A stretch of DNA of 64,000 nt from Enhygromyxa salina (GTDB lineage Bacteria; Myxococcota_A; Polyangia; Nannocystales; Nannocystaceae). A program made the translations under genes and the position numbers. Shown in pieces: positions 3,946-52,080 of this stretch. Position 1 is the stretch's first letter. The number at the start of each line of letters is the position of its first letter. The notes below the pieces were generated by a model. It saw only the letters and a program-made list of their open reading frames with translations, was not told the origin of the DNA and did not search any database. The DNA lies in assembly GCF_002994635.1 (NCBI RefSeq), contig NZ_PVNL01000139.1:18055-82054 (forward strand). The letters run 5' to 3'.

Positions 3946-5763
<1,818 letters not shown>

Positions 5764-7931: not shown

Positions 7932-9497
7932 ATGTCCCAAGAGGGCCAGAAGCACAAGCAGGGCCAAAAGCAGGGCCAGAAGCAGGGCAAGCAGCAGGGC
8001 AAGCAGCACGAGCTTGCGATCGCCACGCGCGCTGCCGACTACCCGCAGTGGTACCAGGACGTGATCCGGTTCGGCGAGCTGGCCGAGCCGGCCAAGGTCG
8101 TCAAGGGCTGCATGGTCATCAAGCCGCATGGCTACGCGGTGTGGGAGAAGATCCAGCGCGATCTCGACGGGCGCTTCAAGGACACGGGCCACCGCAACGC
8201 CTACTTCCCGCTGCTGGTGCCGATGTCGTTCATCACCAAGGAGGCCGAGCACGTCGAGGGCTTCGCGCCGGAGCTCGCGGTGGTGACCCGGGCGGGCGGC
8301 GCCGAGCTCGAAGAGCCCTACGCGATCCGGCCCACGTCGGAGACGATCATCGGCCACTTCTTCGCCAAGTGGATCGACTCGCACCGCGACCTGCCGCTGC
8401 TGATCAACCAATGGGCCAACGTGATGCGCTGGGAGCTGCGCACGCGCATGTTCCTGCGGACCACCGAGTTCTTGTGGCAAGAGGGGCACACCGCCCACGC
8501 CAGCCACGACGAGGCCCGCGAGGAGGTCAGGCGCATGCTCGATGTCTACGGCGACTTCGCCGAGCAGGTCCTGGCGATGCCCGTGATCCGCGGGACCAAG
8601 ACGGCGACCGAGCGGTTCGCGGGCGCGCTGGACACGACCTGCATCGAGGCCTACATGCAAGACGGCAAGGCGCTGCAGGCCGGCACCAGCCACGACCTCG
8701 GCCAGAATTTCGGCAAGGCCTTCGACGTCAAATTCCAGAACGAGGCGGGCGAGCTCGAGTACGTGTGGCAGACCTCGTGGGGCGTGAGCACCCGGCTGAT
8801 CGGCGGGCTCGTCATGACCCACAGCGACGACGCCGGCCTGGTGCTGCCGCCGCTGGTCGCCCCGATCCACGTGGCGATCATCCCGATCTTCCGCACCGAC
8901 GAGCAAAAGGCCCAGGTCCTCGAGGCGGCCCAGCGCATCAAGGCCGCGCTGAGCGAGATCGATCTTTCGACCCCGCGGGCCCGGTTCCGCGACTTCTTGG
9001 AGGTCGTGATCGATGACCGCGACCTGCGGCCCGGCGCCAAGTTCTACGACTGGGAGCGCCGCGGCGTGCCCATGCGGATCGAGCTGGGGCCCAAGGATCT
9101 CGAGAAGGGCCAGGTGTGCCTGAAGATGCGCGTGGACACGCCCGCGGTCAGCGGCAAGCAGTTCCTGCCGGAGGCCGACTTCATCGCCAGCGCGCAGCAG
9201 CGCCTGCTCGACTACCAGGCCGCGCTGCTCGAGCAAGCCCGTGAGCGCCGCGAGGCGAACACGGTCACGCTCGACACCTGGGACCAGTTCCTGGCCACGT
9301 TCGCGGGCGAGGACAGCAAGTTTGCGTGGTGTCACTGGGACGGGACCACGCAGACCGAGCTGGCGATCAAAGAAGCGACCAAGGTCACGATCCGCTGCGT
9401 CCCCCTCGAGGGTCAGGGGCCGGCGCCAGAGCCGGGCGTGTGCATCTTCTCGGGCCAGCCGTCCAAGCAGCGCGTGCTGATGGCGAAGGCGTACTAG
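7932..9497 (+). CDS. proS: proline--tRNA ligase (archaeal/eukaryotic type), with K/Q-rich N-terminal extension
   Basis: Class II aaRS motifs and the ProRS anticodon-binding and C-terminal zinc domains (e.g. [39 protein letters not shown]). Confidence 0.9.
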
Positions 9498-9510
9498 GAT
9501 AGGAGCCGCG

Positions 9511-9807
9511 GTGATGGAGTTCGCTGATCCTCGTACGGTCCGGTCGATCACGGCAGCTCGCAAGGCTTGCGCGCGGGCGGCTGGTACGTGGACCTGTGAA
9601 GATCCAGACGATGACCCGGCCGCCGAGGCCGAGCAGCTGGCCCGCGATGCAGTCGAGCACCTCGAGCAGGGCCGCTGGGATGAGGCGTGCGAGTGCGCCG
9701 AGGCGACAGCGAGCTTGGCCGAGGAGCACGGCCAGGGCACGGTGTGGCGCGAGTTCGTGTTGCTCGTCGAGGAGGCGGCCGAGACCGGCCGGGACAGTCA
9801 AAGCTGA
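9511..9807 (+). CDS. hypothetical small acidic protein
   Basis: 98-aa ORF filling the gap between proS and the MBL gene. Its stop overlaps the next start (TGATG). Confidence 0.35.
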   Translation: MMEFADPRTVRSITAARKACARAAGTWTCEDPDDDPAAEAEQLARDAVEHLEQGRWDEACECAEATASLAEEHGQGTVWREFVLLVEEAAETGRDSQS

Positions 9808-10649
9808 TGACACGCCCGCCCGAAGACAAGCTCGAGGTCTGCAACCTGCACCTGGTGGGAATCAGCCAGGGCGGGGTCGAGACCAACATCCGCGTGCCCG
9901 AGCTCAAGCTGATGTTCGACCTGGGCATGGTCCCCCACGGGGCGCTGAACGTGAATCGCGTGCTGGTCTCGCACGGCCACAATGATCACCTGGCCGGGAT
10001 CCACTACTACATCTCGCAGCGCAAGATGATGGGCCTGCGGCCGGCGATCTTGCATGTCCCCGAGGAGATCGTCGCGCCGCTGAACACGGTGCTGGGCGCG
10101 TGGTCGCAGATCGAGGGCTTCGAGTACGAGTACGAGCTGCGCCCGGCCAAGCCCGGCGAGCGGTTCAAGATCGGCCGCGATCTGACGGCGACGGCGATCC
10201 GCACGGTGCACCGGGTCCCGAGCCTGGCGTGGGCGATCGAGCGAACCACCCACCGGCTCGACGACGCCTACCGCGGTCGCCCGCCAGACGAGCTGGCCAA
10301 GCTGCGGGCCCAGGGCGTGCCGATCACCCACGAGGTCGTGACCCCGCTGCTGTGCGTCACCGGCGACACCACGATCGACACCTTCCTGAGCAGCGACCTG
10401 ATGCGCCGCTGCAAGGTGCTGGTCCACGAGGTCACGGCCTGGGATCAGCAGCGCGACGTGGCGTCGACGCGAGGCTACGGCCACACCCACGTCGACGAGA
10501 TGATCGAGCACGTCGAGAAGTTCGAGGGCGAGGCGCTGGTGCTGGTGCACCGCAGCTTGCGTCACTCGCGAGCGTTCGCCGAGCGCGTCGTGCAAGACCG
10601 GTTCCCGGCCAGCGTGCGCGACAAGGTGTTCGTGTTCGGACATGACTGA
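9807..10649 (+). CDS. MBL-fold metallo-hydrolase (RNase Z/BN-like)
   Basis: ATG at 9807 (MTRPPEDKLEVCNLHLVG...). HxHxDH motif in VSHGHNDHLAG. Confidence 0.75.
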   Translation: MTRPPEDKLEVCNLHLVGISQGGVETNIRVPELKLMFDLGMVPHGALNVNRVLVSHGHNDHLAGIHYYISQRKMMGLRPAILHVPEEIVAPLNTVLGAWSQIEGFEYEYELRPAKPGERFKIGRDLTATAIRTVHRVPSLAWAIERTTHRLDDAYRGRPPDELAKLRAQGVPITHEVVTPLLCVTGDTTIDTFLSSDLMRRCKVLVHEVTAWDQQRDVASTRGYGHTHVDEMIEHVEKFEGEALVLVHRSLRHSRAFAERVVQDRFPASVRDKVFVFGHD

Positions 10650-11861: not shown

Positions 11862-13310
<1,449 letters not shown>

Positions 13311-17347: not shown

Positions 17348-18922
17348 CTATGGCTGCTCGTCGTACCAATAGACGGTGCTGCTCCACGTTGGATGGAGTT
17401 CGGTGATCACCAGGTCACCGAGCCACAGGCCCACGGTCTCGACCTGCACCCGCAGCTGTCGCTCGAACGTGAACGCGTCGTTGAGCATGAACCCGTAGAC
17501 ACTGACCAGCCCCGGCCGCGCCTTGATCGCCCCGGCCAGGGCCTTGCGATCGAAGTGCGTCCAACCGGCGTCGAAAAATTCTTCGGTGCCCGTGCCGTGA
17601 TAGCGGGGCGGCCACGCGTCGATCGGCTGATCAGTCCAGATCTGCCAGTCGCCCTCGCCCCACCACAGATCCTCGAACGGCCACTCGACCCGCAGCAGCA
17701 CCCCCACGAGCTTGCCGCGGCCGCGGTGATCGAACAGGCGGTGCACGGGCACCTGCGCGGGTCCAGAGCGGGGGCTGGCTGGCGTGGCGGCCGGGGCCGA
17801 GGTCACGTGCGCGTGGAGGTAGCCGAAGTCTGGATCTTGCTCGACGCAGCGGCGGATCCACAGCCCGAGCTCGACGCCCACGCGCGCGTCACCGTCGTTG
17901 TGGAGCTCGATGCGCGCGGCTTCGCGGTAGGGCATCGGCAGGCGCAGGTACGCGCGGTGTTGGGTGGCGCCCATGACCAGGCTGTCAAACTCAGCCTCGG
18001 GCTCGTCGGCGTTGTCACCCGCGCCCATGAACTCGGCCAGCGGCAGCTCGATCGCGGGCTGGTCTGCGCGATCCCAGATCACCCGCAGCCGCAGCGCTCG
18101 CCAGGCGGTGGCGGCCTGGCTCGGGTCGAGCTCGACGCTGAGTCGCTCGATCGTCCCGCACCCGCTGTCCTCCCAGCGCAGGCTGGCGCCGGGCTCGAGC
18201 GACTCGGTCACGCGAACGCTCGGCGCTTGCGGCCGCCGGGCACCCGCGACCGCGTCGCTCCACGCTTGCCCGGCCTCGTCGAGCGCTCGCGCGGCGCCGG
18301 GATCGAGCGGCAGCGTGAGGGTCTCGATCGGGGTGTCGGCGTCGTAGCGGGTGTAGCCGATCTGCCAGAACACGCCCCAGCGCTGGTCCGCGTCGATCAG
18401 CCGGATCTCGGCGTGCTCGGCGAACGGGATCGGCATCCGCACGGTTGGGTAGTGGATATCCGGATAGGGCCCCGAGTGGACCAAGCCGCCCGCGAACGGA
18501 CCCGTGACCGGATCGAACAGCTCGCCGACCGTCATCGACAGCAGCTCGCCGTAGTCGAGCATGATCTCGACGCGGGTGTCGGCGACCGCCGCGATGTCCC
18601 CGGTCGAGATCCGGTGGATGCAGCCGGGCCCATCGACGGACAGCAACACGTTGCGGTGGCCGTCCGCCCACGGGTAGGTCGCGCCGTCGAGCGCGTTGAG
18701 GCCGTCGCGGTCGTACGTGCTCGCCAGCTCCGCGTGCCCGGGCTCGAGCAGCGGGAGCGCGTCGAGCCTGTGGAGGCGCTCGAGAAAGTAGCTCACGTCA
18801 CGCGCTGGCGCCGGGCCCTCGCAGGCCAGCGCCGACGCCAGCGCCGTTCCGACGAGCAACCGTCGAGCGCCCGAGCGACGCGCCGCGTTGATCGAACACG
18901 GCCGCGCGCCGGGCAGCTCGAG
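17348..18922 (-). CDS. DUF2961 domain protein (secreted; start uncertain, must lie below 18934)
   Basis: YHGTGTEEFFDAGW matches the DUF2961 GTEDYF-type motif. RR-containing signal-like segment AARRSGARRLLVGTALASALA. The ORF track over-extends the N-terminus into the neighbouring gene. Confidence 0.55.
   Translation of the reverse strand, partial: LELPGARPCSINAARRSGARRLLVGTALASALACEGPAPARDVSYFLERLHRLDALPLLEPGHAELASTYDRDGLNALDGATYPWADGHRNVLLSVDGPGCIHRISTGDIAAVADTRVEIMLDYGELLSMTVGELFDPVTGPFAGGLVHSGPYPDIHYPTVRMPIPFAEHAEIRLIDADQRWGVFWQIGYTRYDADTPIETLTLPLDPGAARALDEAGQAWSDAVAGARRPQAPSVRVTESLEPGASLRWEDSGCGTIERLSVELDPSQAATAWRALRLRVIWDRADQPAIELPLAEFMGAGDNADEPEAEFDSLVMGATQHRAYLRLPMPYREAARIELHNDGDARVGVELGLWIRRCVEQDPDFGYLHAHVTSAPAATPASPRSGPAQVPVHRLFDHRGRGKLVGVLLRVEWPFEDLWWGEGDWQIWTDQPIDAWPPRYHGTGTEEFFDAGWTHFDRKALAGAIKARPGLVSVYGFMLNDAFTFERQLRVQVETVGLWLGDLVITELHPTWSSTVYWYDEQP
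17429..17494. repeat. 66-bp duplicated segment (copy B, inside the DUF2961 C-terminal coding region)
   Basis: See copy A at 15245..15310. Confidence 0.8.
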
Positions 18923-18933
18923 CCCCCGCGGAC

Positions 18934-19596
18934 TCAGGGGATGCACTCGTTGGCGCAGCTGGACTGACCGCAGATGAGCAACGCCGTGGTCGCGGGGGTG
19001 TTCGCGTTGCACATGGCCTGACACTGCAGCGGATCGCCGCCCATCAGTACGCAGTCGTACGCGCAGGTGCACGCCGCGTCGTTGAAGCACGCTTCGGCTT
19101 CATCACAGCAGTTGGCCTTGATGCACGTGGAACAGGGGGTGTCCTGCAGGTCCGGATCGCAGACGCCGCCGTCGCCGTCACCATCCCCGTCACCATCTCC
19201 GTCACCGTCGCCGTCACCATCGCCATCCCCGTCGCCGTCACCATCTCCATCCCCGTCTCCATCTCCATCTCCATCCCCGTCTCCATCGCCGTCGCCGTCT
19301 CCATCTCCGTCGCCGTCTCCATCTCCGTCGCCGTCTCCATCTCCGTCGCCCGGATCACCGTCACCATCGCCCGGATCGCCGTCACCATCGCCCGGGTCGC
19401 CGTCGCCGTCTCCGTCTCCGTCTCCGTCGCCCCCTTCCTGCTCAGCCCCCTCCTGACTGTCGGTCCCGGTGCCGGTCGTGTCGCCGTTGGTCTCGTTGCC
19501 GCCGCTCCCGGTGATCCCCACGTCGTCGCCGCCGCAGCCGAACGCCAACAAGACAGTGAACAAGCTCGCTCCTGAAACTCGGAAAATCGTCTTCAT
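18934..19596 (-). CDS. lipoprotein with very long (DG)n linker and C-terminal Cys-rich domain
   Basis: Lipobox LLAFGCGG. About 60 DG dipeptides encoded by the microsatellite at 19165..19430. C-terminal CSTCIKANCCDEAEACFNDAACTCAYDCV. Confidence 0.6.
   Translation of the reverse strand: MKTIFRVSGASLFTVLLAFGCGGDDVGITGSGGNETNGDTTGTGTDSQEGAEQEGGDGDGDGDGDGDPGDGDGDPGDGDGDPGDGDGDGDGDGDGDGDGDGDGDGDGDGDGDGDGDGDGDGDGDGDGDGDGDGDGDGDGDGDGGVCDPDLQDTPCSTCIKANCCDEAEACFNDAACTCAYDCVLMGGDPLQCQAMCNANTPATTALLICGQSSCANECIP
19165..19430. repeat. (ccgtcg/ccatct)n hexamer microsatellite encoding (DG)n
   Basis: Direct tandem hexamers across about 265 bp. Confidence 0.85.
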
Positions 19597-19653: not shown

Positions 19654-20577
19654 TCAAGACGGGATGAAGCCCGCCAACAGTCGCAGCGCTGGCTCCACGA
19701 ACAACGGCGACGGCACGGCGATCCAGGCGGCCGTCCACGCTCGACGGGCGCCGATCCCCCAACGAGCCACGCCCACGTGTCGCTCGAGCAGCAACCCCGC
19801 GCCATGAACGACGAAGAAGCTGGCCATCAGCGCCCCGGCGACGAGATCGAGTGGCACCCACGCAAACCAAAAATGCAGCGCGGTGCTGGCCGCAAACGCG
19901 GCACAGATCCCCAGCGTGGCGCGACGGCGACGCGCCAGCGGCAAGAACAAATTGTCGTGGAGCCAGCCCGACACCGCCCGGTTCCAGCGACGCCCCCAGA
20001 ACTCGCTGAGCGTGGTCGAGAGGATCGGCCGGTCGTTGATCCGCGGAAATTCGAGGCCAAAGCCACGGTAGATCATCAGCACCAGCGCGTGCACGGTCTC
20101 GATGCTGGCGTAGCAGAGCACCAGGCCAACGCCCCACCGCAGCGCCCAGCGACCGACCCCGCGCAGACCCGGCGCGAGCTCGAAGACGGCGACCCAGGTC
20201 ACGAGCACGAGCGCGAGGTGGCCGACAAACCACGCGAGCTCGGCCCGGTCGTAGCGCGACGAACGGCGCCGGAGCGCGCGTACGTCAAACAGCGCCGTCA
20301 ACATCCACACGCGCCCCCAGAACGACAACCCCGCGGGGCGCCGGGCGAGATCCAGCGCCCGACCCAGGCTGACCGTGACCAGCATCGCGAGGATCGTCCG
20401 ACCCACGATCCACCCAGACGGCAGCAGCAGCGGCGCCACGCTGGCGATCGCTGCGATCCCGACGCCGAGGTAGCGCGACCGCTCGCGCGGCTCGTCGCGC
20501 CCGCTGACGCGCGCACAGGCCAGCACCGCCAACATCCACACGGCGAGGGCAACGAACAGGCGAGCAACGTCAGACAT
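19654..20577 (-). CDS. membrane-bound O-acyltransferase-like (MBOAT_2/wax-synthase-like) protein
   Basis: Multi-pass membrane protein with SEFWGRRWNRAVSGWLHDNLFLPL, resembling the MBOAT FW.RWH...W....Y.PL motif. Confidence 0.5.
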   Translation of the reverse strand: MSDVARLFVALAVWMLAVLACARVSGRDEPRERSRYLGVGIAAIASVAPLLLPSGWIVGRTILAMLVTVSLGRALDLARRPAGLSFWGRVWMLTALFDVRALRRRSSRYDRAELAWFVGHLALVLVTWVAVFELAPGLRGVGRWALRWGVGLVLCYASIETVHALVLMIYRGFGLEFPRINDRPILSTTLSEFWGRRWNRAVSGWLHDNLFLPLARRRRATLGICAAFAASTALHFWFAWVPLDLVAGALMASFFVVHGAGLLLERHVGVARWGIGARRAWTAAWIAVPSPLFVEPALRLLAGFIPS

Positions 20578-21400: not shown

Positions 21401-21583
21401 GGTGGTTGGCTCCTGTTGTCGGTGGTCCGCGCCGCCGTCGATCGGTTCACTGGGTTATGATCACCAACTGTACAGATTCTCAGACCGCACGTGGCAACAA
21501 ATCGCCGAACTCGAGGGCACCGCGGTCGAGACCCCGAAGTTGGGCAGATGCCCGCGAGTCGCGGTAGATCCCAGGACAGACGG

Positions 21584-23740
21584 ATGACGAGCCTACCGCT
21601 GGCCAGCACGGCCCCGCGTGCGAGCAAGATCCCCCTGCGTTCGGCCCTTCAGCTGCGCAGCGATCCCTACACGTGGTGGCCCAAGAAGTACCTGGAGCTC
21701 GGCCCCGTCTACCGGGTCGCGATCCCGACCGACCGCAAGCCGTGGATCGTGATCGCCGGTCGCGAAGCCAACGAGCTGGTCGCAAAAGAGGGCGCGCACC
21801 TGTTCAACCAAAAGGCGACCTACCCCAAGGCGCCCAAGGTCCTGCGCACGGAGCTACACCCGAGCTTCACCGAGGGCGCGCTGCAGCGTCACCTTCGTCG
21901 GCAGGTCGCGCCGGGGTTCTCACGCCAAGCCGCGGACCCGCACCTCCCGGCCATGATGTCGTGGGTGCGCGAGTACGTGGATCGCTGGAGCCCGGGGCAG
22001 GTGATCCGCGTGACCGAGGAGACCTCGCGGATCGGGCTCAACTGCATCTCGCTGTTCGCTACCGGTCGCGAGCTCGACGGCGACAGCGAGGACATCCGCA
22101 AGTACGCGATCTCGTTCACGCAGGTGCTCGCGCTGGGGTGGCCGCTGGCTGCGCTGAACTTCGGCCGCACCAAGCGGGCCCGCGAGGCGCTCGACGGCAT
22201 GATCGAGCAGCGCCTCGCCGAGCACGAGCAGACCCCGCCCGGTCGCGACCGCGCTCCCGACTACTTCGACTTCTTGCTGCGCGGCACCTTGCCCGACGGC
22301 TCGCCCCTGCCCGCGCGCGAGCGCGTGGTGTTTGGCCAGATCCCGTTCAAGAACATGGGCGTCTACGCCGGGCGGGTCATCAACCACGTGCTGATGCAGC
22401 TGGTCCAGCGCCCCGAGGTGCTCGAGCAGGTCCTGCCCGAGATCGATCGGGTGATGGCCGACGACGAGCTCACGCTCGAAGAGATCGCCTCGATGGAGGC
22501 GACCCAGGCCGCCGTCAAGGAGACCCTGCGGATCCTCCCGACCGCCGTCACCTTGCAGCGCACGGTCGGCGAGCCGTTCGAGTTTGGTGGGTATCAATTC
22601 GAGGTCGGGGATCGGCTGTTCACCCCGCTGTCGGCCACGCACTTCCTGCCCGAGTTCTTTCCTGACCCCGAGCGCTTCGACATCGATCGCTACTCGCCCG
22701 AGCGCGGCGAGGATCGCCAGCGCTACGTCTACAACCCGTTCGGCCTGGGCCACCACGCGTGCGTCGCCCAGGGGGTGTTCGAGGCGCTGACCATGGTCGT
22801 GGTCGGCAGCGTGCTGTACCGCTGGAAGCTCGAGGCACCGTACAAGCTCAACACGATCTTCGACGCGCTGCCGGGGCCCGACCCCAAACACCAGATGCGG
22901 GTCATCGAGCGGCGCACGGTCGCGCCGCCGCCCGGCGTGCGTCGTCGCAGCCCGACCCAGCGCTACTCGCTGTCGGCCGCGATGCTCGACGCGATCGACG
23001 GGGCCCCCGAGGTCACGCTCGCCGACGACGAGCTGCTGTTCGCCCAGGGTGATCAGCCCGACTGCCTGTACTTCATCCTGGACGGCAAGCTGCGGGTCTC
23101 CACCGATCGTGGCGACGGTGAGGTGGTCGAGCTCGCAACCCTGGGGCCGGGCGAGGTCGTCGGCGAGATCGGGATCCTGCATGGGCTGCCGCGGGTCGCC
23201 ACGGTCCGCGCCGAGGGGCCGGTCACGCTGCTGAGCGTCGACGAAGAGACCTTCGCCCGCGCGGTCGTCGAGAGTGACATCACCGCCCGCGAGCTCGGTG
23301 ACCTGGCCGTGCGTCGCCACGCGGGCGCCCTGATCGCCCAGCTGTTCGACACGGGTCGGCGCATGCCTCGGCTCGGTCGCCACGGGCACGTGCTCGAGCT
23401 CGAGCTCGAGGCCGGCACGACCTTGTTCCGGCATGGCGACCCAGCAGAGAATTACTTCCTGGTCGCGTCGGGGTCGCTCGAGGAGCTGGCCGAGAGCCTG
23501 ATGGGCGAGCCGCGGGTGCTGCGGGTGATCCAGGCGCCCGACTGTATCGGCGAGATCGGGCTGATCGACGGCCGCCCGCGACCGACGACCGTTCGCGCCG
23601 GGCCCAACGGCGCGAAGCTGCTGAGCCTCGACCGCGACGCGTTCGTGCGGGTGTCGCAGGGTGACGAGTCGCAGGCTGCTGTCAGCTTGGTCGCCAAGAT
23701 CCGCTTCGATGACTCCGACGACGACGCGGACGATTACTGA
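21584..23740 (+). CDS. cytochrome P450 fused to two C-terminal cyclic-nucleotide-binding (cNMP/CAP-type) domains
   Basis: ATG at 21584. Heme-binding loop FGLGHHACVAQG. ETLR (EXXR) motif. Two cNMP-type modules (FILDGKLRV...GEVVGEIGIL and LFRHGDPAENYFLVASG...IGEIGLIDGRPR). Confidence 0.8.
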   Translation: MTSLPLASTAPRASKIPLRSALQLRSDPYTWWPKKYLELGPVYRVAIPTDRKPWIVIAGREANELVAKEGAHLFNQKATYPKAPKVLRTELHPSFTEGALQRHLRRQVAPGFSRQAADPHLPAMMSWVREYVDRWSPGQVIRVTEETSRIGLNCISLFATGRELDGDSEDIRKYAISFTQVLALGWPLAALNFGRTKRAREALDGMIEQRLAEHEQTPPGRDRAPDYFDFLLRGTLPDGSPLPARERVVFGQIPFKNMGVYAGRVINHVLMQLVQRPEVLEQVLPEIDRVMADDELTLEEIASMEATQAAVKETLRILPTAVTLQRTVGEPFEFGGYQFEVGDRLFTPLSATHFLPEFFPDPERFDIDRYSPERGEDRQRYVYNPFGLGHHACVAQGVFEALTMVVVGSVLYRWKLEAPYKLNTIFDALPGPDPKHQMRVIERRTVAPPPGVRRRSPTQRYSLSAAMLDAIDGAPEVTLADDELLFAQGDQPDCLYFILDGKLRVSTDRGDGEVVELATLGPGEVVGEIGILHGLPRVATVRAEGPVTLLSVDEETFARAVVESDITARELGDLAVRRHAGALIAQLFDTGRRMPRLGRHGHVLELELEAGTTLFRHGDPAENYFLVASGSLEELAESLMGEPRVLRVIQAPDCIGEIGLIDGRPRPTTVRAGPNGAKLLSLDRDAFVRVSQGDESQAAVSLVAKIRFDDSDDDADDY

Positions 23741-29134: not shown

Positions 29135-30552
29135 CAGGCCTCGCGTGTGGTTCGGTGAACAGAGCGAGCAGGGCGTACGCGGCGAGCACCCAGCCGACGT
29201 AGGCGCGCGTGCGCTCGCTCGTTGCGGATCCGTCGTCGGCCCGCATCGCCCGGCGCATGATCTGGACGATCACCACGGGCGCGAAGAAGTGCAGCACGTA
29301 CAGTCCGTCGACCCAGGCCGCCGGATCGCGCCAGCTCGCCGCTTGGCCCAGACCCTGGACGGCGACCCCAGCAAACCCCCACGCGACCCCCAAGCTCGGC
29401 GCTCGAAACAACAGCCAGCCGACACAGACCGCGACAAAGGTCAACGCGACACCCAGCGACGCCCGCACGAGCCCGGTTGCCTCGCGCTCGGCGGCCCCGC
29501 GCAACCGCGACACCCCGCGCTCGAGCGCCAGCCACAACCCATGAAAGGCCCCCCAGGCCACGAAGGTCCAGGCGGCGCCGTGCCACAGACCGCCCAACAC
29601 CATCGTGACCGCGAGGTTGATCTGCGTGCGCACGGGCCCGCGCCGATTGCCACCCAGCGGAATGTACAGATAGTCGCGCAGCCAGGTCGACAAGCTGATA
29701 TGCCAGCGCCGCCAAAAATCGCGGGGTCCCCGAGCCAGGTAGGGCGCGTCAAAGTTCTCGGCCAGGCGAATACCGAGCATTCGCGCCACGCCCAGCGCCA
29801 TGTCCGTGTAACCAGAGAAGTCGGCCCAGATCTGACCTGCGAAGGCGAGGACACCCAGCCAGACCTGATGCGGCGCGACCTGATCGGCTGGGATCACAAA
29901 CACCCAATCAACATACGCGCCGAGGTTGTCGGCGATGATCATCTTCTTCCACAGCCCGACCACGAACCGGCGCGCGCCCTCGAGCTGATCCGCGGCGCCT
30001 AGCCGCGGCGTGCTCACGAGCTGAGGCAGCAGCGAAGACGCGCGCTCGATCGGACCCGCGACCAGCTGAGGGAAGAACGCCACATAGGCCGCGAACTGCC
30101 ACGGGTCGTCGGTTGCCTGGGTGCGACCGCGGTAGACGTCGATCGTGTAGCCCAGGGTTTGAAACGTGTAGAAGCTGATGCCCACGGGCAACACGATGTG
30201 AAGCGAGACCCAGTCCGCCTCCAGCCCCACCGACTGCAGCACCGCGGCCGTCGACGCCGCGAAGAAGTCCAGGTACTTGAACGTTGCGAGGACCCCGAGG
30301 TTGACCACGAGGCTCAGCCACAACCAGCGACGGCGCGACCCCTCGCTGCGCGCGAGCTGCCTGCCGCACAGGTAGTCGACGCCCGTCGACAGCAGCAACA
30401 GACCCGTGAAGCGCCAGTCCCAGGCCGAGTAGAACCCCCAGCTGGCCAGCGTCAGCAGGATCAGTCTTGCCCGCGCGTGGTTGCGCAGCGCCCAGTAAAG
30501 CGCCCACGTGACGGCGAAGAAGACCGCAAAGGTCGCGGAGTGGAACAGCACT
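29106..30552 (-). CDS. MBOAT-family O-acyltransferase (AlgI/DltB-like)
   Basis: GTG start giving (M)LFHSATFAVFF... Conserved MBOAT core (FFPQLVAGPIER, WRRWHISLSTWLRDYLYIPLGGNR, GLWHGAAW). Confidence 0.8.
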
Positions 30553-30758
30553 GCAAAGACTGTACTCCGGCGCGAGCGGTTCGGCACGCTCGCGTTCGCT
30601 CGCTCGGCTGCGGGCGCGTGACCGCGTCGCGAACCTCGTCCCAAGCCCGGCCGAGCGGCCAAGCGGCTCTCGACCAAGGCCGAGTGGAACCAGGCCAAGC
30701 GTGGTCGCACCCCGGGGACTGGATCGGATCTCACGAGCAGCCGGCACCCCCCGCGAGT

Positions 30759-42168: not shown

Positions 42169-43080
42169 TCAAGGCTCGATCACCGCGGTCTGAGCGAAGC
42201 GCACCTGGGCGACGGCGCCGATCCGCGAGCGCGGGGCATCACCGTCAAACCGCGCCTCCGCGATGATCAGACCCGTCCCCGCGTCGATCTCGGGCGCGAT
42301 CGCGCTGACGCTCGCCGCAAACTCCAGCTCGGAGTCGGCGAATCGCACGACCAGCGCGGCGCCGAGCTCGAGCGCCGCGGCCTCGGTATTGGGGACGGCA
42401 AAGCGGACCAGCCGATCCTCGGAGATCAGCGAGACTACCGGGTCGCCGAGCGTGAGCGTGGCGCCAGGGTCCGCGTAGCGATCACCCACGAACGCAGCGA
42501 ACGGGGCCCGGAGCTCGGCTTCGGTCAGTCGCTCGGAGGCCGCGTTCATGCGGCTGCGCTCGCGCGCCAGCGAGGCGTCGGCGCTGCGCTTGCGCGCGTC
42601 GGCCAGCTGCTCGGCGACGCGTCGCTCGCGAACTTCGGCGCGCGAGACGAAGTCTTCGAGATCCTCGACCTCGGCTCGGTTCGCGCGGGCCTCGGCGAGC
42701 TCGAGCTCGAGCCGATCGAGCTCGGCTCGGGCGCTTCGCCAGGTCGCCGTGGCGCCCGCTAGCTCGCTGCGTTGGCCCAGCAACTCCACGATCGCGACAA
42801 CCGCGTCGGCGTCGATGCGATCCCCGACGTGGAGGTCGAGACGCTCGAGCCGCGCGATGCCGGGGGCGACCAGCACGACCTCGGCCGCAGGGACCAGGAC
42901 GCCGAGCATCGCGACATCGGCGACCTTCGTCGTGCTCGTCGCCTCCAGCTCCAACTCGAGCGCGCGCTCCGACGGCGGTGAACCCTCAGCTGCCGAGTCG
43001 ACGATCGCGGACGCGTCGGCCCCGACACAAGCGAGCGCCAGCGCGGTCACCCCGACCGGGACCCACGCCCACGCGCTCAT
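42169..43080 (-). CDS. HlyD-family periplasmic adaptor (second, short)
   Basis: Signal/transmembrane then coiled coil. ATGA overlap with the ABC transporter stop. Confidence 0.6.
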   Translation of the reverse strand: MSAWAWVPVGVTALALACVGADASAIVDSAAEGSPPSERALELELEATSTTKVADVAMLGVLVPAAEVVLVAPGIARLERLDLHVGDRIDADAVVAIVELLGQRSELAGATATWRSARAELDRLELELAEARANRAEVEDLEDFVSRAEVRERRVAEQLADARKRSADASLARERSRMNAASERLTEAELRAPFAAFVGDRYADPGATLTLGDPVVSLISEDRLVRFAVPNTEAAALELGAALVVRFADSELEFAASVSAIAPEIDAGTGLIIAEARFDGDAPRSRIGAVAQVRFAQTAVIEP

Positions 43081-45257
43081 GGGGCCTCCCGCTGGTAGAG
43101 CCGGCGGTACACGTCACCGCGGGCGAGCAGGTCGCGGTGGGTCCCGGACTCGATCACGCGACCGCGGTCCATGACCAAGATGAGGTCTGCCTCGACGACG
43201 GTGCTGAGCCGGTGGGCGATCACGATCCGCGTACAGCGAAGACTTGCGAGCGAGCGCTGGATCGCGGCCTCGGTCACGCGGTCGAGGCTGCTCGTCGCCT
43301 CGTCGAGCAAGACGATCGCGGGCTCGGCCGCGAGCGCCCGGGCGAGCGCCAGCCGCTGGCGTTGGCCCCCGGACATCGAGGCGCCGCCGTCGGCCAGGAT
43401 CGTCTCGTAGCCCATGGGCAGCTGAACGATCTCGTCGTGGATCGCCGCGCGCTTGGCCGCCTCGACGACCGCCTCGAGCGACATCTGGGGCTGACCCATC
43501 GCGATGTTCTCGCGGACCGACACGCCAAACAGCTCACCACCTTGGGTCACGACGCCGAGCTGTTCGCGGACGCTGCGAAGGTCCAAGCCGGCGAGGTCCA
43601 CACCGTCATAGCGGATCTGCCCCTGCTGGGGCCGATAGAGCCCGACGAGCAGCTTGGCGAGGGTCGACTTCCCGGCCCCGGACGACCCGACCACAGCGAC
43701 GAATTGGCCCGGGGCAATGCTGACGCTGACATCGGTGACGGCCGCTGGCGAGGACTCGGAGTAGCGGAAGCTGATCGCGTCGGCGTCGATCTGCCCGCGC
43801 AGCCGCGGCGCCCGAGTGACCGCGCTGCGGTCTTGTTCGGGCTCGGCCCCCATCACGTCGTCGATCCGCTCGAGGTAGCTACCGAGCACTTGAAACTCGA
43901 GCGCGACCCCAACTAGGGTACCGAGCGGGCCGAGCACGCCAGCGCCGAGAGCCGAGAGCCCCAGCATCGCGCCAAGTCCGATGTCGCCGCGCAGGACCAA
44001 GAACGTCCCGGTCGCAAGGACGACGAGCGGCGCCGCGACGGTGAAGGCCCGCAGCAGCGAGCTGATCAGCGCGTCGAGGCGAGCCCGGCGAAGCGAGACG
44101 TTGAGCGCGTCGACGAACAAGTTCGACCAGCGCTCGAGGGCGCGGTACTCGGCGCCCATGCTCTTGAGCGCCTCGATCCCGCCGAGCATCTCGACCTCGT
44201 AGCTCGAGGTCTTGGCCTGCGCCGCGAGGCTCTCGCTCATCAGCTCGCGCTGGACTCGGCGCGTCGCCCAGTACAGCGACAGCTGTACGCCAGCGAGCCC
44301 GAGCACGACGGCGCTCATCAGCGGGCTGGCCCACATGATCAGGACCAAATACAGACTCACCAGCGAGCCGTCGAGCAGAGCCGAGAGCGCGCCCGAGGTG
44401 AGGATCTCCCGGACCGTCGTGTTGCTGCCCAGGCGCATGAGCAGGTCGCCAGTCGAGCGGCGCTGGAAGAACGAGTAGGGCAGATCAACGAGGTGGTCGA
44501 GGAACCCGACGGTCAGCTTGGCGTCAAGCAGCGTGCGCAGCGAGACCAACACGTTGGCCCGGACCAGCGAGGCGACAAAGGTAAACAGCACCATCATCGC
44601 AAGGCCGGCGAGCAGGACCGTGAGCAGATCGAGGTCGCGCCGCGGGATGATCCGGTCGACGAGCAAAGTCGTGAGCAAGGGCAGCCCCAGCGCGAGCAGC
44701 TGCACGAGCACCGACATCATCACGACCCGGCTCCACAGCCCCGGATAGCTGAGGATCTGGGCGAAGTAGCGGCGCACGAGCGGACGGCTGCGCTGCTCGG
44801 GGGCGAACGCCTCGCTTGGCTCGAGCAGCAGCGCGACCCCGGTGCAGGCGCGGTCGAACTCGCCCGGGCTGACGCGGCGGCGACCGTAGGCGGGATCGAG
44901 GATCACCACCCCCCGACGGTCGACGCCGTCGAACACGACGAAGTGGTTGAACTCCCAGTGCAAGATGGCGCCGCGCGGCACCAGCTCGAGGTCGTCGAGC
45001 GACTCGATCTGAACGCCGCGGCCGCGCAGCCCGTAGCCGCGCGCGGCACGAAGGATCGCCAGCGCGCTGACGCCGTCACGATCGGCCGCGGTCGCCTCAC
45101 GCAGCTCCTCGAGCGGCCGGTCGCGGCCGTAGTAGCGCAAGACCATGGCCAGGCAGGCGGCGCCACAGTCCGCCGCGGTCAACTGGGCGATGTGCTCGAG
45201 TCGGCGGCGGCCCGAGGCCCCGAGACGACGCAGCGCGGGGAGTCGTTGAGCGGTCAC
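43077..45257 (-). CDS. peptidase-C39-domain ABC transporter (bacteriocin/RiPP leader-cleaving exporter)
   Basis: N-terminal C39 Cys motif QLTAADCGAACLAMVLRYYG. Six-TM transmembrane domain. Walker A GSSGAGKST. ABC signature LSGGQRQR. Walker B ILLDEATSSLD. Confidence 0.9.
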   Translation of the reverse strand: MTAQRLPALRRLGASGRRRLEHIAQLTAADCGAACLAMVLRYYGRDRPLEELREATAADRDGVSALAILRAARGYGLRGRGVQIESLDDLELVPRGAILHWEFNHFVVFDGVDRRGVVILDPAYGRRRVSPGEFDRACTGVALLLEPSEAFAPEQRSRPLVRRYFAQILSYPGLWSRVVMMSVLVQLLALGLPLLTTLLVDRIIPRRDLDLLTVLLAGLAMMVLFTFVASLVRANVLVSLRTLLDAKLTVGFLDHLVDLPYSFFQRRSTGDLLMRLGSNTTVREILTSGALSALLDGSLVSLYLVLIMWASPLMSAVVLGLAGVQLSLYWATRRVQRELMSESLAAQAKTSSYEVEMLGGIEALKSMGAEYRALERWSNLFVDALNVSLRRARLDALISSLLRAFTVAAPLVVLATGTFLVLRGDIGLGAMLGLSALGAGVLGPLGTLVGVALEFQVLGSYLERIDDVMGAEPEQDRSAVTRAPRLRGQIDADAISFRYSESSPAAVTDVSVSIAPGQFVAVVGSSGAGKSTLAKLLVGLYRPQQGQIRYDGVDLAGLDLRSVREQLGVVTQGGELFGVSVRENIAMGQPQMSLEAVVEAAKRAAIHDEIVQLPMGYETILADGGASMSGGQRQRLALARALAAEPAIVLLDEATSSLDRVTEAAIQRSLASLRCTRIVIAHRLSTVVEADLILVMDRGRVIESGTHRDLLARGDVYRRLYQREAP

Positions 45258-46228
45258 GGGGCCTTTGAAGTGGAGTGGGATGGGTCGCCCGGTACCAGGG
45301 TCTCGAGCAAGGTCTCGAGCAGCGTCACCGAGCGCAGCTTGGCCTCGAGCGTGCCCTGCATGCCGTCGAAGATCCGGTAGTGGGTGTCGTTGGCCGCGAA
45401 CGAGTCTGAGCGCAGCTCGGTCTCGACCACGACGATCGGCCCGCGCAGCTCGACGCTGCCTTGGCGATCGCGTCCGAGGTAGCGCATCGCCTCGGCCGGA
45501 CCGATGACCTCGTCGGCGACGGAGCGAACGACCACCTCGCTGCGGCTGTCGGAGAAGCCCTCGAGTTCGAGGTAGACCTGGGTGTCGGCAGCGCTGAGCA
45601 GCGGTCGGTAGTGCCCGGGGAACAGGCCGACGACGACGGTCCGCGCGTCGTCCTGCTCGAGCGAGACCAGCGCGTCGCCGAGCACGACCGGCTGGCCCCG
45701 ACGCACGCGCACGTCGGACACCACGCCGGACTCTGGGGCGACGATCGTGCGTCCGCGCAGCTTGGCCCGGGCCAGCTCGACGGCCGCGTCAAAGCTGGCG
45801 AGTCGCTGCCGCTTGCCCTCGCTGTCGCGCTGCGGGGCGCGAAGCAGCTCGAGCAGCTGGCGTGTGTAGGCCTGCTCGGCACGCTCGAGCTCGGCGCGCT
45901 CGCTCGCGTCATCGAGGCGAACCAGCACCGCCCCGGTCGCGACCCGCTGCCCCGACCGAACCTCGATCTGCTGGACGGTCCCGGACACGGCCGAGGTCAC
46001 CAGAACTCGACCCTCGCGGCGAACCGTGGCGATCCCTTGGGCGTACTCGCCGATCTCTGCAGTCGCCGCGAAGATCGTCGCGCTCACGAACACGGCGAGC
46101 AGCACGAGCTCGGCCAGGCGGGTCCACCCCGAGACCGCGCCGAGCGGTCGCCCCGGTCGATCACCGCAACCGTGCGCGTTTAATGCCGCAGGCCGGAAGA
46201 TCGAGCGCGCGGGCGCCGTCGCGTTCAT
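45254..46228 (-). CDS. HlyD-family secretion adaptor
   Basis: Transmembrane anchor LVLLAVFVSATIFA, coiled-coil and beta-barrel regions. ATGA coupling on both sides. Confidence 0.7.
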   Translation of the reverse strand: MNATAPARSIFRPAALNAHGCGDRPGRPLGAVSGWTRLAELVLLAVFVSATIFAATAEIGEYAQGIATVRREGRVLVTSAVSGTVQQIEVRSGQRVATGAVLVRLDDASERAELERAEQAYTRQLLELLRAPQRDSEGKRQRLASFDAAVELARAKLRGRTIVAPESGVVSDVRVRRGQPVVLGDALVSLEQDDARTVVVGLFPGHYRPLLSAADTQVYLELEGFSDSRSEVVVRSVADEVIGPAEAMRYLGRDRQGSVELRGPIVVVETELRSDSFAANDTHYRIFDGMQGTLEAKLRSVTLLETLLETLVPGDPSHSTSKAP

Positions 46229-47238
46229 GAGGCCGTCCGCGTCGCCCGAGCGTGAGCGCTGGCGTGGCCGACCAGCGCGTCGCACAGCGGCCCGCAGATG
46301 TCGACGCCTGCGCGCTGCTCGAACCCGATGAACATCGCCGAAGGGTTGAGCTCGAGGATCTTGTAGCGCCCGTGACGGTCGGCCTTGATGTCCATGCCCG
46401 TGTACGGAAGCCCGATGATCGCGGCCGCGCGCACACAGCTGGCCGCGACCTCGGGCGCGAGCTCGATCGCCTCAATCCGCTGTTCGTGCTGGCGAAAGTC
46501 GATCGCGTCCGTCACGATTCGCAGCGCGCAGACGACCTGGCCGTCGATCACATAGACGCGGACGTCGTCGCCAGGCAGCAGCTCCTGAAAGCAGACTGGG
46601 GCCGCGCCGAGCTTGGCGAGGCGCTCGGGGGACAGGTCGGCGGCTTCGACCTTGCGGGTCGCGGCCCCGCCAGCGACGGGCTTGAAGATCGCGTCGCGGC
46701 CCTCACAAAATCGCAGCACCGCCGCGGGGTCGTTGGTCCACAAGCTGTCGGGCGTCGGCAGCCCCGCCGCACGCAGCAGCGCGAGTTGGTACGGCTTGGT
46801 GATGTTGTTGCCGACCGTCGGGGGGTTGTAGAGCGGCACGCCGAGGTGCTCCCAGCGCAGCAGGATCGCCGACAGCAGCGTCGATCGCTCCCGAAACGCG
46901 AGCACCGTGCGACGCCAGTCCTCGCGCATGGCCTCGTCGGCCTCCACGCCGAACCCCGCCGGGCTCTGGTAGAGGCTGCGCACGTAGACGGCGGCCGGCC
47001 GCGCGATGCGGTGGCCCGCGATGTCGATCTGCTCGGGCCCGCCGCCCAGGCTGACCGCGAGCTGCTCGGGGAACTCGCGGGCGTCGAGGACCGTGGGCTC
47101 GTGACCGCGGGCGCGGACACCTTCGTAGACGGCGCGGGCGTGGGCATCCTCGAGGGCGCCGACGATGACGATGGGAGATACGGACACGGCTGGCTGCTCC
47201 GGGGAAGCGAGGGTTGAAGGTGCCCGCCGGGGCCGCAC
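46225..47238 (-). CDS. ATP-grasp macrocyclase (RimK-like; graspetide omega-ester ligase)
   Basis: ATP-grasp fold motifs (AIFKPVAGGAATRKV, ILELNPSAMF). Immediately downstream of the precursor. Confidence 0.75.
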   Translation of the reverse strand: MRPRRAPSTLASPEQPAVSVSPIVIVGALEDAHARAVYEGVRARGHEPTVLDAREFPEQLAVSLGGGPEQIDIAGHRIARPAAVYVRSLYQSPAGFGVEADEAMREDWRRTVLAFRERSTLLSAILLRWEHLGVPLYNPPTVGNNITKPYQLALLRAAGLPTPDSLWTNDPAAVLRFCEGRDAIFKPVAGGAATRKVEAADLSPERLAKLGAAPVCFQELLPGDDVRVYVIDGQVVCALRIVTDAIDFRQHEQRIEAIELAPEVAASCVRAAAIIGLPYTGMDIKADRHGRYKILELNPSAMFIGFEQRAGVDICGPLCDALVGHASAHARATRTAS

Positions 47239-47265
47239 GAGCGGGCCCCGGCGAGCGAGGGTCGC

Positions 47266-47502
47266 CTAGCTGAGGGCGTCTTCTTCGCCGAGGGCGAGGG
47301 TGGTCGGGCCATCCTCCTCACCGATCGCGAGGGTGGTCATCACGTCTTCCTCGCCGAGCGCCTTGGTCGTCGGGTTGCAGTGGTCTTCCTCGCCGATCGC
47401 GAGGGTGGTCGCGATGGGGCCACCCTTGCCGCCGGTCACCTGACCGAGGTCCTCGATGTAGAGATCCTTCAGCTGCTTCTTGTCAGTCTTATTGTTGCTC
47501 AT
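47266..47502 (-). CDS. graspetide (plesiocin-like, group 2) precursor peptide with four TTxxxxEE core repeats
   Basis: MSNNKTDKKQLKDLYIEDLGQVTGGKGGPIATTLAIGEEDHCNPTTKALGEEDVMTTLAIGEEDGPTTLALGEEDALS. Leader with a LxIEDL-like motif. Four T(T/K)xxxGEED cores. AAGGA ribosome-binding site 7 nt upstream. Confidence 0.8.
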   Translation of the reverse strand: MSNNKTDKKQLKDLYIEDLGQVTGGKGGPIATTLAIGEEDHCNPTTKALGEEDVMTTLAIGEEDGPTTLALGEEDALS

Positions 47503-52075: not shown

Positions 52076-52080
52076 GACGT

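Follow-up and report, generated by a model that had tools for sequence, protein, structure and literature searches.

The window, a 64,000-nucleotide stretch of Enhygromyxa salina DNA, carries on its forward strand an open reading frame (21491..23740) whose ATG at 21584 is the start of an identical 718-residue NCBI protein. From this ATG the frame runs unbroken to 23740, and its product is 100% identical to a database protein of E. salina (P0001). Alignments of homologues, which begin at residue 1–3, back the same start. The protein consists of a cytochrome P450 domain, a linker, two cNMP-binding (CNB) domains joined by a long helix, and a C-terminal tail (Table 1). Both domain types match Pfam far above threshold: PF00067 (p450) covers aa 34-418 with 130.6 bits (E 9e-38; cutoff 22.8), and PF00027 (cNMP_binding) falls in two stretches with 134 bits (E 2e-39; cutoff 27.5). 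This bears out an earlier sequence-only reading of the locus, which had proposed a P450 fused to tandem cNMP-binding domains, and the acidic tail that it placed after the CNB modules is likewise present. Neither of the two weaknesses it had cautioned against, a second half failing the cNMP HMM and a frameshift or assembly artefact, is seen. GC3 lies between 0.86 and 0.96 per 150-nt block throughout the frame, also where the two domain types meet at about 22.9 kb, and such steady GC3 and codon bias across the junction argues that there is no frameshift. Moreover, the same fusion occurs in the independent isolates E. salina DSM 15201, SWB005 and Nannocystaceae ST9, and in many metagenomes and MAGs. 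The sole CNB-only match (P0121), which we considered as a naturally split gene, turned out to be a truncated call whose first residue lies within the C-terminal part of the P450, at P450 residue 411. That a sequencing, assembly or frameshift error merged two separate genes is thus refuted by the uniform GC3 and the recurrence of the fusion, and we give this explanation virtually no credence. A scan for promoters and terminators around the gene gave nothing informative.

Table 1. Positions of the fusion gene, its domains and motifs, and the adjacent acyltransferase gene within the window.
Feature	Position	Strand	Evidence
Whole gene, P450-linker-CNB-A-CNB-B-acidic tail, 718 aa + stop	21584..23740	+	ORF, Pfam, identical protein, GC3
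Cytochrome P450 domain, aa 1-445	21584..22918	+	Pfam, PDB sequence search, AF2 pLDDT ~90, Foldseek
I-helix motif F255-KNMGVYAG-R264	22346..22375	+	BM3 alignment, family alignment
K-helix EXXR, E313-T-L-R316, invariant	22520..22531	+	alignment
Haem-binding loop FGLGHHACVAQG, thiolate ligand Cys393, invariant	22739..22774	+	alignment
Interdomain linker, aa 446-470, ~25 aa, predicted disordered	22919..22993	+	AF2, alignment
Linker motif R453-R-R-S456-PTQRY, conserved	22940-22966	+	alignment
CNB-A beta-barrel, aa 471-565	22994..23278	+	Pfam, PDB sequence search, alignment
CNB-A phosphate-binding cassette G527-EIGILHGLPRVATVR-A543	23162-23212	+	alignment
Long connecting helix, aa 566-598, DITARELGDLAVRRHAGALIAQLF..., conserved	23279..23377	+	AF2, alignment
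CNB-B beta-barrel, aa 599-691	23378..23656	+	Pfam, PDB sequence search, alignment
CNB-B phosphate-binding cassette G656-EIGLIDGRPRPTTVR-A672	23549-23599	+	alignment
C-terminal helix + acidic tail …RFDDSDDDADDY, predicted disordered	23657..23737	+	AF2, alignment
MBOAT_2 membrane O-acyltransferase gene, divergent, upstream	19654..20577	-	neighbourhood comparison

Across the window and 12 homologous loci there is no conserved gene neighbourhood, and operon-based assignment of function was dropped. The surroundings of the fusion gene, in the window as in about 12 homologous loci, contain no gene for a cyclase (adenylate or guanylate), a ferredoxin or a reductase. The MBOAT_2 gene adjoins it in four Enhygromyxa loci only, and a functional link between the two is possible. 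In three genomes (L002/L017, L023 and L008), the P450 gene directly adjoins or overlaps a gene of steroid-type Rieske+KshA_C composition; in NCBIfam the encoded oxygenases come closest to SdmA, a sterol enzyme, far below cutoff. An aldo-keto reductase lies near three loci. Together with kinship to the CYP51/CYP120 clan, these neighbours offer weak hints of a sterol- or lipid-like substrate, weak because the neighbourhoods are not conserved. Enhygromyxa is a cholesterol-producing marine myxobacterium (PMC10202945), and the fusion family is absent from the scanned representative genomes of other sterol-producing Nannocystaceae genera.

The P450 core as a whole is strongly conserved. Cys393, Glu313 and Arg316 are invariant in 39 close and 47 distant fusions, in keeping with a predicted haem-thiolate protein, and the FxxGxxxCxG-type haem loop (F386-GLGHHAC393VAQG-397) is the one quoted in the sequence-only reading. 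By sequence and by Foldseek, the fold is nearest to CYP51fx, BM3 and CYP120A1. Membership of a P450 family requires more than 40% identity, and neither CYP51 nor CYP120 applies. CYP51 sterol 14-alpha-demethylase was rejected at 22% identity in the structural alignment, with the HMMER alignment limited to aa 164-410; the His-Thr signature of the CYP51 I-helix is also missing, CYP51 FAGHHTS pairing with FKNMGVY of the fusion protein. CYP120 was rejected as well, since its match to 2ve3 (E 1.6e-26) has only 22% identity in the Foldseek alignment. A separate, genuine CYP51 is present in E. salina (PMC7947880). Pfam and NCBIfam detect p450 and cNMP_binding only, with no fused FMN/FAD, flavodoxin or Fe-S domain, which sets the protein apart from the self-sufficient P450-redox-partner class (CYP102, CYP116B, CYP51fx).

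The I-helix is where the P450 half departs from expectation. A gap-free alignment to P450 BM3 places V260 at the acid site (E267) and Y261 at the Thr site (T268), so the canonical (A/G)Gx(D/E)T(T/S) motif of O2-activating P450 monooxygenases is missing. Tyr261, Gly263 and Arg264 are invariant among close fusions. Tyr in place of Thr, with Arg at +3, is found in 107 of 112 CNB-fused P450s; Tyr occupies the Thr position in 28/130 stand-alone relatives and in 3/72 GPP34-fused relatives. The Val-Tyr plus Arg signature accompanies CNB fusion throughout the clan. Because Tyr stands for the catalytic Thr, the P450 half does not read as a canonical monooxygenase core, and standard O2-activating monooxygenase activity seems unlikely. 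The description of the domain as a complete P450 therefore holds for the EXXR and haem loop, but not for the acid/alcohol pair of the I-helix. CYP74 allene oxide synthases and the CYP8A and CYP5A isomerases are also without this pair. An unrooted bipartition unites 128 of 129 Tyr-type sequences but takes in about 22 divergent canonical ones too (F1 0.91; 0.72-0.96 in six bootstraps), which is suggestive of a common origin for the Tyr-type sequences; when rooted on BM3, the NJ tree was unstable.

Turning to the C-terminal half, the best PDB matches come from PKA RI-alpha, over its tandem CNB-A/B (1ne4/1rgs, E ~2e-20, in two stretches), and from PKG, with further matches to the cNMP-regulated EAL enzyme Bd1971 and the cAMP-acetyltransferase Pat. 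AlphaFold (AF2) predicts two barrels, each followed by helices. The cNMP-contacting residues, whose conservation the sequence-only reading had left to be checked, are retained among the 39 close members in phosphate-binding cassette (PBC) A (E528 38/39, R537 38/39) and PBC-B (E657 as 28 Glu and 9 Asp, R666 38/39), and the Glu and Arg are near-invariant in the 47 distant fusions as well. After the PBC Arg, most homologues have Thr, Ser or Ala; the window protein has Val in CNB-A (R-V-A) and Pro in CNB-B (R-P-T), odd residues that may mean altered affinity or specificity. R-T-A at this site is found in cAMP binders and cGMP binders alike, and the sequence cannot tell the two preferences apart. 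A CRP/FNR transcription factor was rejected: Pfam finds no HTH domain, and NCBIfam matches to CRP, FtrB and NtcA cover the CNB barrel only, far under cutoff.

Other myxobacteria, and organisms outside that group, carry the fusion too. An exhaustive profile search returned some 55-60 further full-length, collinear P450-CNB-CNB cluster representatives, and so many full-length members at only 20-34% identity imply a large, old clan. About 110 cluster representatives were collected overall; the architecture is unstudied, but with so many representatives the earlier word uncommon fits it only in part. In the majority of distant members with both motifs, the haem loop lies 140-159 aa from PBC-A, and PBC-A 125-131 aa from PBC-B. 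For the window protein, AF2 gives a pTM of 0.74; a distant member (P0239), modelled from an independent alignment, reaches pTM 0.88 with mean pLDDT 91.5. The P450 domain makes up 62% of the chain and could not by itself account for such values, and a defined packing is therefore predicted. These models point to a fixed three-domain arrangement, whose CNB-P450 interface may lie at the substrate channel or on the side of the redox partner. Some Tyr-type homologues with 57-66% identity stand alone and carry no CNB, which implies that the P450 can work unregulated. The extra N-terminal domain of one longer member (P0275), considered as a cyclase or reductase, proved to be a degenerate, Cys-less P450-like domain.

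We propose that the gene encodes a cNMP-gated P450 with non-standard chemistry, in which a soluble P450 of the haem-thiolate type is permanently attached to a PKA-R-like CNB pair, and put the probability of this reading at roughly 0.6. The architecture, the conservation of the motifs, the breadth of the clan and the rigid packing of the models are the directly observed parts; control of the P450 by cAMP or cGMP, as the sequence-only reading had suggested, is what we infer from sequence and predicted structure. In such a protein, cAMP or cGMP would occupy both canonical phosphate-binding cassettes, and binding would rearrange both barrels together with the long helix between them. The fixed interdomain interface would relay this rearrangement to the P450, whose catalysis would be toggled on or off at the protein level. 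Ligand binding, the direction of regulation, the chemistry and the substrate are conjectural parts of the model. The nearest worked examples are the cAMP relief of autoinhibition in PKA, in Epac and in the mycobacterial cAMP-GNAT acetyltransferase.

It is also conceivable, though we think it unlikely, that the CNB domains no longer sense cAMP or cGMP and instead recognise some other small molecule, or act purely in dimerisation or as a structural module. Precedents include the binding of nucleosides by trypanosomatid PKA and of haem or other effectors by CooA/CRP-FNR-type domains. Re-use of CNB folds for other ligands is on record (PMC2246266, PMC10959531). The unusual R-V-A and R-P-T of the window protein and the lack of a cyclase gene nearby would fit such a loss. 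The Gly-Glu...Arg signature of both cassettes speaks against it, being kept in at least 37 of 39 close members and near-invariant in the 47 distant ones. So do the canonical clan consensus (FGExGLLxxxPRTATVRA in CNB-A, FGEIGLLxxxPRxATVRA in CNB-B), the fact that the top PDB relatives are true cAMP/cGMP binders, and the confinement of degenerate cassettes to single members such as P0044. Alternatively, the cyclic nucleotide may govern partner docking or localisation rather than the active site. For example, the CNB tandem and the acidic tail may mask the basic proximal face on which ferredoxin docks, or the module may tether the enzyme to another protein. Localisation had already been raised in the sequence-only reading, and no redox partner is fused to the protein or encoded next to it. 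A tail that is ferredoxin-like in charge and the predicted fixed packing of the CNB domains on the P450 point the same way. However, the tail is kept only among close Enhygromyxa relatives, and the absent acid/alcohol pair casts doubt on the need for a redox partner; we give this alternative a low probability.

A more radical view is that the P450-like domain is a haem-thiolate gas or redox sensor, and that the PKA-R-like module, with RRxS on the N-terminal side of CNB-A, sequesters or releases a Ser/Thr kinase. The clan-wide loss of the catalytic Thr and acid would suit a sensor, as would orphan genes with no pathway context. Furthermore, the disordered linker has a conserved RR[R/H]S (R453 33/39, R454 30/39 and S456 32/39 in close members) where PKA R-subunits carry their inhibitor site. 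Yet this motif is restricted to the Nannocystaceae-type subfamily and missing from the distant clan, and a Pro at +1 is unlike PKA. Tyr-type P450s also exist on their own, in some cases in translational coupling with the gene of a Rieske oxygenase, which looks metabolic, and the entire P450 core is strongly conserved. We regard this view as very improbable. A bolder extension of cNMP gating is still tentative, and on balance we doubt it: the fusions may form an ancient, distinct clan of second-messenger-gated haem-thiolate proteins in which the distal Tyr and the +3 Arg make for new P450 chemistry or a ligand switch. The cyclic nucleotide would then bring the I-helix Tyr onto the haem iron or take it off, and so toggle a peroxide- or substrate-driven, non-monooxygenase reaction, which could make or modify a lipid or sterol signal in Enhygromyxa. 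On this extended reading, the protein would be the first P450 known to be under allosteric cAMP/cGMP control, and cyclic-nucleotide signals in bacteria would act directly on the oxidative chemistry of lipids.

P450s are usually controlled through gene expression, substrate supply or redox-partner availability, and we know of no P450 that is switched by a second messenger. No published description of a P450-CNB fusion was found in full-text literature searches on P450 with cNMP, myxobacteria or Enhygromyxa, nor is one described in the available part of a census of CNB architectures (PMC2246266). The clan is a testable family whose members have a fixed P450-CNB-CNB layout in common, along with canonical cNMP pockets and an active-site signature of their own, Tyr for Thr plus Arg. 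If gating is true, this may be the first P450 that a second messenger switches directly. It would give bacterial cAMP/cGMP signalling an additional class of output, and Enhygromyxa may regulate sterol or lipid modification in this way. Such a protein would also provide a natural ligand-switchable P450 scaffold for biocatalysis and a model for the coupling of the I-helix to remote allosteric sites. Even if gating is false, the database names "Putative cytochrome P450 120" (UniRef) and "CRP-like cAMP-binding protein" (JGI) are wrong by those families' own criteria.

How does the protein compare with known systems? Among solved P450s, the nearest is CYP51fx, the CYP51-ferredoxin of Methylococcus capsulatus (6mi0/6mcw, E 2e-29, TM 0.82), with CYP120A1 (2ve3, E 2e-26) also among the nearest; identity to either is only ~22%. 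CYP51fx is likewise a natural C-terminal fusion, but its partner is a redox protein rather than a sensor, and CYP51 and CYP120 retain the His/Glu-Thr pair of the I-helix that the fusion P450 has lost. What the acid/alcohol pair does, and how it is replaced in peroxygenase P450s, has been described; CYP152 enzymes have Arg-Pro instead, with the Arg as the residue that holds the carboxylate of the substrate (PMC5818669). The conserved Asp/Glu-Thr is thus replaced in both cases, by Arg-Pro in CYP152 and by Val-Tyr with Arg at +3 here. Apart from the general fold there is no significant sequence kinship to CYP152, the NCBIfam match having E 0.011 and covering the C-terminal part alone.

On the sensor side, the non-fused proteins that come closest to the CNB half are CNB-only proteins of ~324 aa. 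CbpB of Myxococcus xanthus has two cAMP-binding domains (Kimura et al. 2005, cited in PMC10313047); CbpB and the stand-alone tandem-CNB proteins share only ~30% identity with the CNB half and are without a catalytic domain. The mycobacterial MtPat/MsPat cAMP-GNAT and the cNMP-EAL phosphodiesterase Bd1971 of Bdellovibrio are, like the protein here, covalent fusions of a CNB sensor with a catalytic domain, and in MsPat/MtPat autoinhibition is relieved by cAMP (PMC8556138). Those enzymes have a single N-terminal CNB, whereas the fusion protein has a C-terminal tandem and a P450 as output. There is also a parallel in layout with PKA RI-alpha and PKG, in which two successive CNB domains are joined by a long B/C-type helix, the counterpart of aa 566-598. 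The cassettes of the fusion protein and of PKA RI-alpha CNB-A are identical at 11/17 positions (GELALIYGTPRAATVKA vs GEIGILHGLPRVATVRA). The basic RRxS on the N-terminal side of CNB-A may be a counterpart of the R-subunit inhibitor site, but it is subfamily-specific in the fusion clan. Where the R-subunit has its dimerisation/docking domain, the fusion protein has a P450 and no other Pfam domain, which excludes it from the PKA regulatory subunits. Its regulated partner would lie in cis, as a haem enzyme and not a kinase.

The uninterrupted reading frame at 21491-23740 (+) encodes, from the ATG at 21584, a 718-aa product as annotated in databases, in which a cytochrome P450 domain (Pfam p450, aa 34-418, 130.6 bits, E 9e-38) is followed by two cyclic-nucleotide-binding (CNB) domains (cNMP_binding, two stretches, 134 bits, E 2e-39), both families scoring far above their curated cutoffs. 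The product is 100% identical to an Enhygromyxa salina NCBI/UniRef entry and 95% identical to the DSM 15201 orthologue, and alignments with homologues begin at residue 1-3. The P450-CNB-CNB architecture proposed in the sequence-only reading is certain and lies at the coordinates named there; the EXXR motif (E313-TL-R316) and haem loop (F386-GLGHHAC393VAQG) are found as quoted, and the acidic C-terminus closes with FDDSDDDADDY. In this window of about 69% G+C, GC3 stays at 0.86-0.96 in every 150-nt block of the ORF, domain junction included, so a single frame runs from start to stop. Since the fusion also occurs in independent isolates and MAGs, a sequencing, assembly or frameshift artefact is excluded.

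A word-indexed search recovered the P450 and CNB Pfam pair in about 45 cluster representatives at 49-83% identity, from Enhygromyxa isolates and MAGs, Nannocystaceae bacterium ST9 and 'Myxococcales' MAGs. Two MAGs listed as 'Alphaproteobacteria' also carry it; their isolate names contain MYXO. A 28% identical Vicinamibacterales protein has the same architecture. A HMMER profile search, exhaustive over 1.84 billion representatives clustered at 50% identity, added about 55-60 proteins of 700-790 aa (350-616 bits), nearly all metagenomic, each matching in one collinear stretch (profile positions ~6-710) at 20-34% identity to the window protein. With 116 CNB-fused P450 sequences gathered, these distant members included, the architecture represents a large, old, unstudied clan and not an Enhygromyxa-only oddity; it had been called uncommon, and although unstudied it is not rare. 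One 1239-aa metagenomic member, P0275, has an additional N-terminal P450-like domain which has lost the haem Cys (…PFGVGPQSGFG…); it precedes a P450 with Tyr at the I-helix Thr position and the CNB pair. The sole CNB-only match, P0121, was rejected as a split gene, being a truncated gene call. Stand-alone P450s of about 460 aa, 57-66% identical to the window protein, have no CNB within the protein or nearby.

P450 families are usually delimited at 40% identity. The closest P450 sequences and structures, CYP51fx of Methylococcus (E 2e-29; TM 0.82), CYP120A1, CYP184A1 and BM3, are about 18-23% identical to the window P450, and membership of CYP51 or CYP120 is rejected under this rule. A separate CYP51 is present in E. 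salina (PMC7947880). The sequence-only reading took the P450 to be complete, which holds for the domain, EXXR motif and haem Cys393 but not for the I-helix, where the acid/alcohol pair is missing. This unexpected I-helix (GQIPF255-KNMGVYAGR264-V.N) is near-invariant in fused and stand-alone family members, and a gap-free BM3 alignment pairs N257 with A264, V260 with E267 and Y261 with T268 of BM3; the HMMER alignment to CYP51 lies one register off, and still places no acid/alcohol residue. In most P450s this pair serves as a proton relay in O2 activation, and it is replaced in peroxide-using enzymes (PMC5818669). When all gathered relatives were placed on one core HMM, in counts that are not phylogenetically independent, the Thr position was Tyr in 107 of the 112 CNB-fused P450s with the region present (Arg at +3 in 101 of these 107) and a normal Asp-Thr was found in only 3/112; Thr or Ser occupied it in 96/130 stand-alone and 69/72 GPP34-fused relatives. 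This Tyr-for-Thr, Arg+3 signature points to a chemistry that differs from classical O2-dependent hydroxylation; Tyr261 may relay protons, be redox-active or serve as a distal ligand that can be switched. The GPP34-fused proteins (P0060-P0105, loci L024-L035; 29-35% identity), from Dehalococcoidia, where they are common, and other MAGs, are the next-closest P450 relatives; about 665 aa long, they join an N-terminal GPP34 domain (Golgi phosphoprotein 3 family, PF05719) to a P450 with a normal Asp-Thr I-helix, apparently another unusual, unstudied P450 fusion.

In unrooted NJ trees, built after taking out the motif columns, 128 of 129 P450s with this Tyr (Tyr-type) group together with about 22 divergent canonical sequences (F1 0.91, bootstraps 0.72-0.96); the BM3-rooted NJ tree gives no stable Tyr-type clade. 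A single origin is plausible, though not established. Three to four subclades of stand-alone Tyr-type P450s are nested inside the fused Nannocystaceae-type family, a pattern suggesting that these proteins lost the CNB module secondarily.

In the window, the fusion gene has no cyclase, ferredoxin or reductase gene beside it, a Pyr_redox_2 gene lying about 10 kb upstream, and no neighbourhood is conserved across 12 other homologous loci. MBOAT_2 adjoins the fusion gene in four Enhygromyxa loci, and an aldo-keto reductase gene lies near three loci. In three genomes, one with a stand-alone P450, a Rieske + KshA_C oxygenase gene overlaps or abuts the P450 gene; as both P450 forms are involved, translational coupling and a shared pathway are suggested. 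Among NCBIfam models, these oxygenases best match SdmA, a bacterial sterol C-4 enzyme, with a score far under the cutoff. Cholesterol is produced by E. salina, which is suspected of modifying sterols further (PMC10202945). From these neighbours and the cholesterol, a sterol- or lipid-like substrate is a reasonable lead and nothing more; a representative-genome scan turned up no family member in other sterol-producing Nannocystaceae genera. In the ST9-type loci the BipA gene is syntenic except that an MmeI-family gene has been inserted between it and the fusion gene. Elsewhere in the window, the 1027-aa ORF with matches to major-vault-protein domains is a vault-protein-like gene in a myxobacterium, and DUF4215-repeat protein genes adjoin the DUF692-DUF2063 fusion gene.

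Genes around the fusion gene, at homologous loci (L numbers) and elsewhere in the window
Feature	Position	Strand	Remarks
Unknown 270-aa membrane protein			upstream of fusion gene, divergent
MBOAT_2 acyltransferase			upstream of fusion gene, divergent
Unknown 670-aa protein			downstream of fusion gene
HisKA_3 kinase / LuxR-type response-regulator pair			downstream, beyond 670-aa protein gene
Rieske + KshA_C (steroid-type)	L008 9404-10408		4-nt overlap with P450 gene
Rieske + KshA_C (steroid-type)	L002 8964-10010		10-nt overlap with P450 gene
Rieske + KshA_C (steroid-type)	L023 ~8940-9902		immediately upstream of P450 gene
MmeI-family restriction-modification	L001 12248-15034; L007 10178-11869		between fusion gene and BipA (Nannocystaceae ST9-type)
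MbnB/TglH/ChrH-type (DUF692) RiPP-modification enzyme fused to DUF2063	3946-5748	-	324.6 bits
Copper type II ascorbate-dependent monooxygenase N- and C-domains	11862-13310	-	weak matches; cytochrome-c-like motif
DUF2961 gene	17348-19090		annotated start overlapped by lipoprotein gene
Predicted lipoprotein	18934-19596	-	very long Gly-Asp (GD)n / DGDP repeat, then Cys-rich C-terminus
MVP_shoulder, weak Vault_3	30159-33242	+	93.5 bits, E 1e-26 (MVP_shoulder)
RiPP-like gene cluster	~42169-55650	-	
C39-peptidase ABC exporter	43077-45257	-	RiPP-like cluster
ATP-grasp	46225-47238	-	RiPP-like cluster
Two JmjC/cupin oxygenases	49980-51533, 52081-53334	-	RiPP-like cluster
YcaO cyclodehydratase	53338-55650	-	RiPP-like cluster
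Two HlyD proteins	within ~42169-55650	-	RiPP-like cluster

Among solved proteins, the CNB half is closest to the CNB-A/CNB-B tandem of PKA RI-alpha (E ~2e-20, alignment over both domains), a Euglena PKA-R and PKG; Bd1971 (a cNMP-regulated EAL enzyme), the SthK channel, CRP proteins and the mycobacterial cAMP-acetyltransferase are among the weaker matches. The JGI label 'CRP-like' describes the fold only, since Pfam shows no HTH domain in the window protein. Its phosphate-binding cassettes (PBCs) are G527-EIGILHGLPRVATVR-A543 in CNB-A, 11/17 identical to RI-alpha CNB-A, and G656-EIGLIDGRPRPTTVR-A672 in CNB-B. The phosphate-contacting residues are conserved across 39 close fusions (E528, R537 and R666 in 38/39 each; E657 as Glu in 28 and Asp in 9), and the consensus PBCs of 47 distant fusions, FGExGLLxxxPRTATVRA and FGEIGLLxxxPRxATVRA, with near-invariant Glu and Arg, read as textbook cassettes. 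A less probable reading gives the tandem a non-cNMP ligand or a purely structural role; the residue after the PBC Arg, Thr in most homologues, is unusual in the window protein (Val in A, Pro in B). Alternatively, the tandem may control partner docking, or the protein may be a sensor or scaffold using the motif RR[R/H]S-PTQRY of its disordered linker (window 22940-22966, aa 453-461). This motif occurs in about 30/39 Nannocystaceae-type fusions (alignment A2), at the position matching the RRxS/A inhibitor site of PKA R-subunits, and is absent among distant clan members.

A P450 gated by cAMP or cGMP through the CNB tandem is the best-supported model (probability about 0.6); sequence alone does not separate the two ligands. 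Both cassettes would bind cAMP or cGMP, the CNB barrels and a conserved connecting helix (DITARELG.LA.RRHA) would rearrange, and the change would reach the P450 across a fixed interface and so gate its catalysis. The P450-CNB linker is short, and in most distant members with both motifs, at 20-30% identity, 140-159 aa separate the haem loop from PBC-A and 125-131 aa separate PBC-A from PBC-B. AlphaFold2 gives a mean pLDDT of 82 and pTM of 0.74 for the window protein, with linker aa 448-465 and tail 692-718 disordered, and 91.5 and 0.88 for the distant member P0239 from an independent alignment. Because the P450 makes up only 62% of the chain, pTM values this high suggest that one fixed arrangement of all three domains is predicted with confidence. 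Foldseek against the PDB returned only P450s (TMq <= 0.54), and no listed match spans both halves.

The window protein belongs to the P450 and CNB superfamilies and falls outside CYP51, CYP120, PKA R-subunits proper, CRP/FNR regulators, self-sufficient redox fusions and canonical monooxygenase P450s. Full-text literature searches and the CNB-architecture census gave no description of a P450-CNB fusion, and databases annotate it only automatically. To a P450 specialist, the active-site signature shared across the clan is both new and surprising. All statements about the protein's function are ones that we infer, and the gating hypothesis is directly testable. As a CNB-regulated enzyme, the protein would be of a known kind: PKA, Epac and cAMP-GNAT enzymes offer the analogy, in that cAMP lifts autoinhibition there, as described for the cAMP-GNAT enzymes (PMC8556138).
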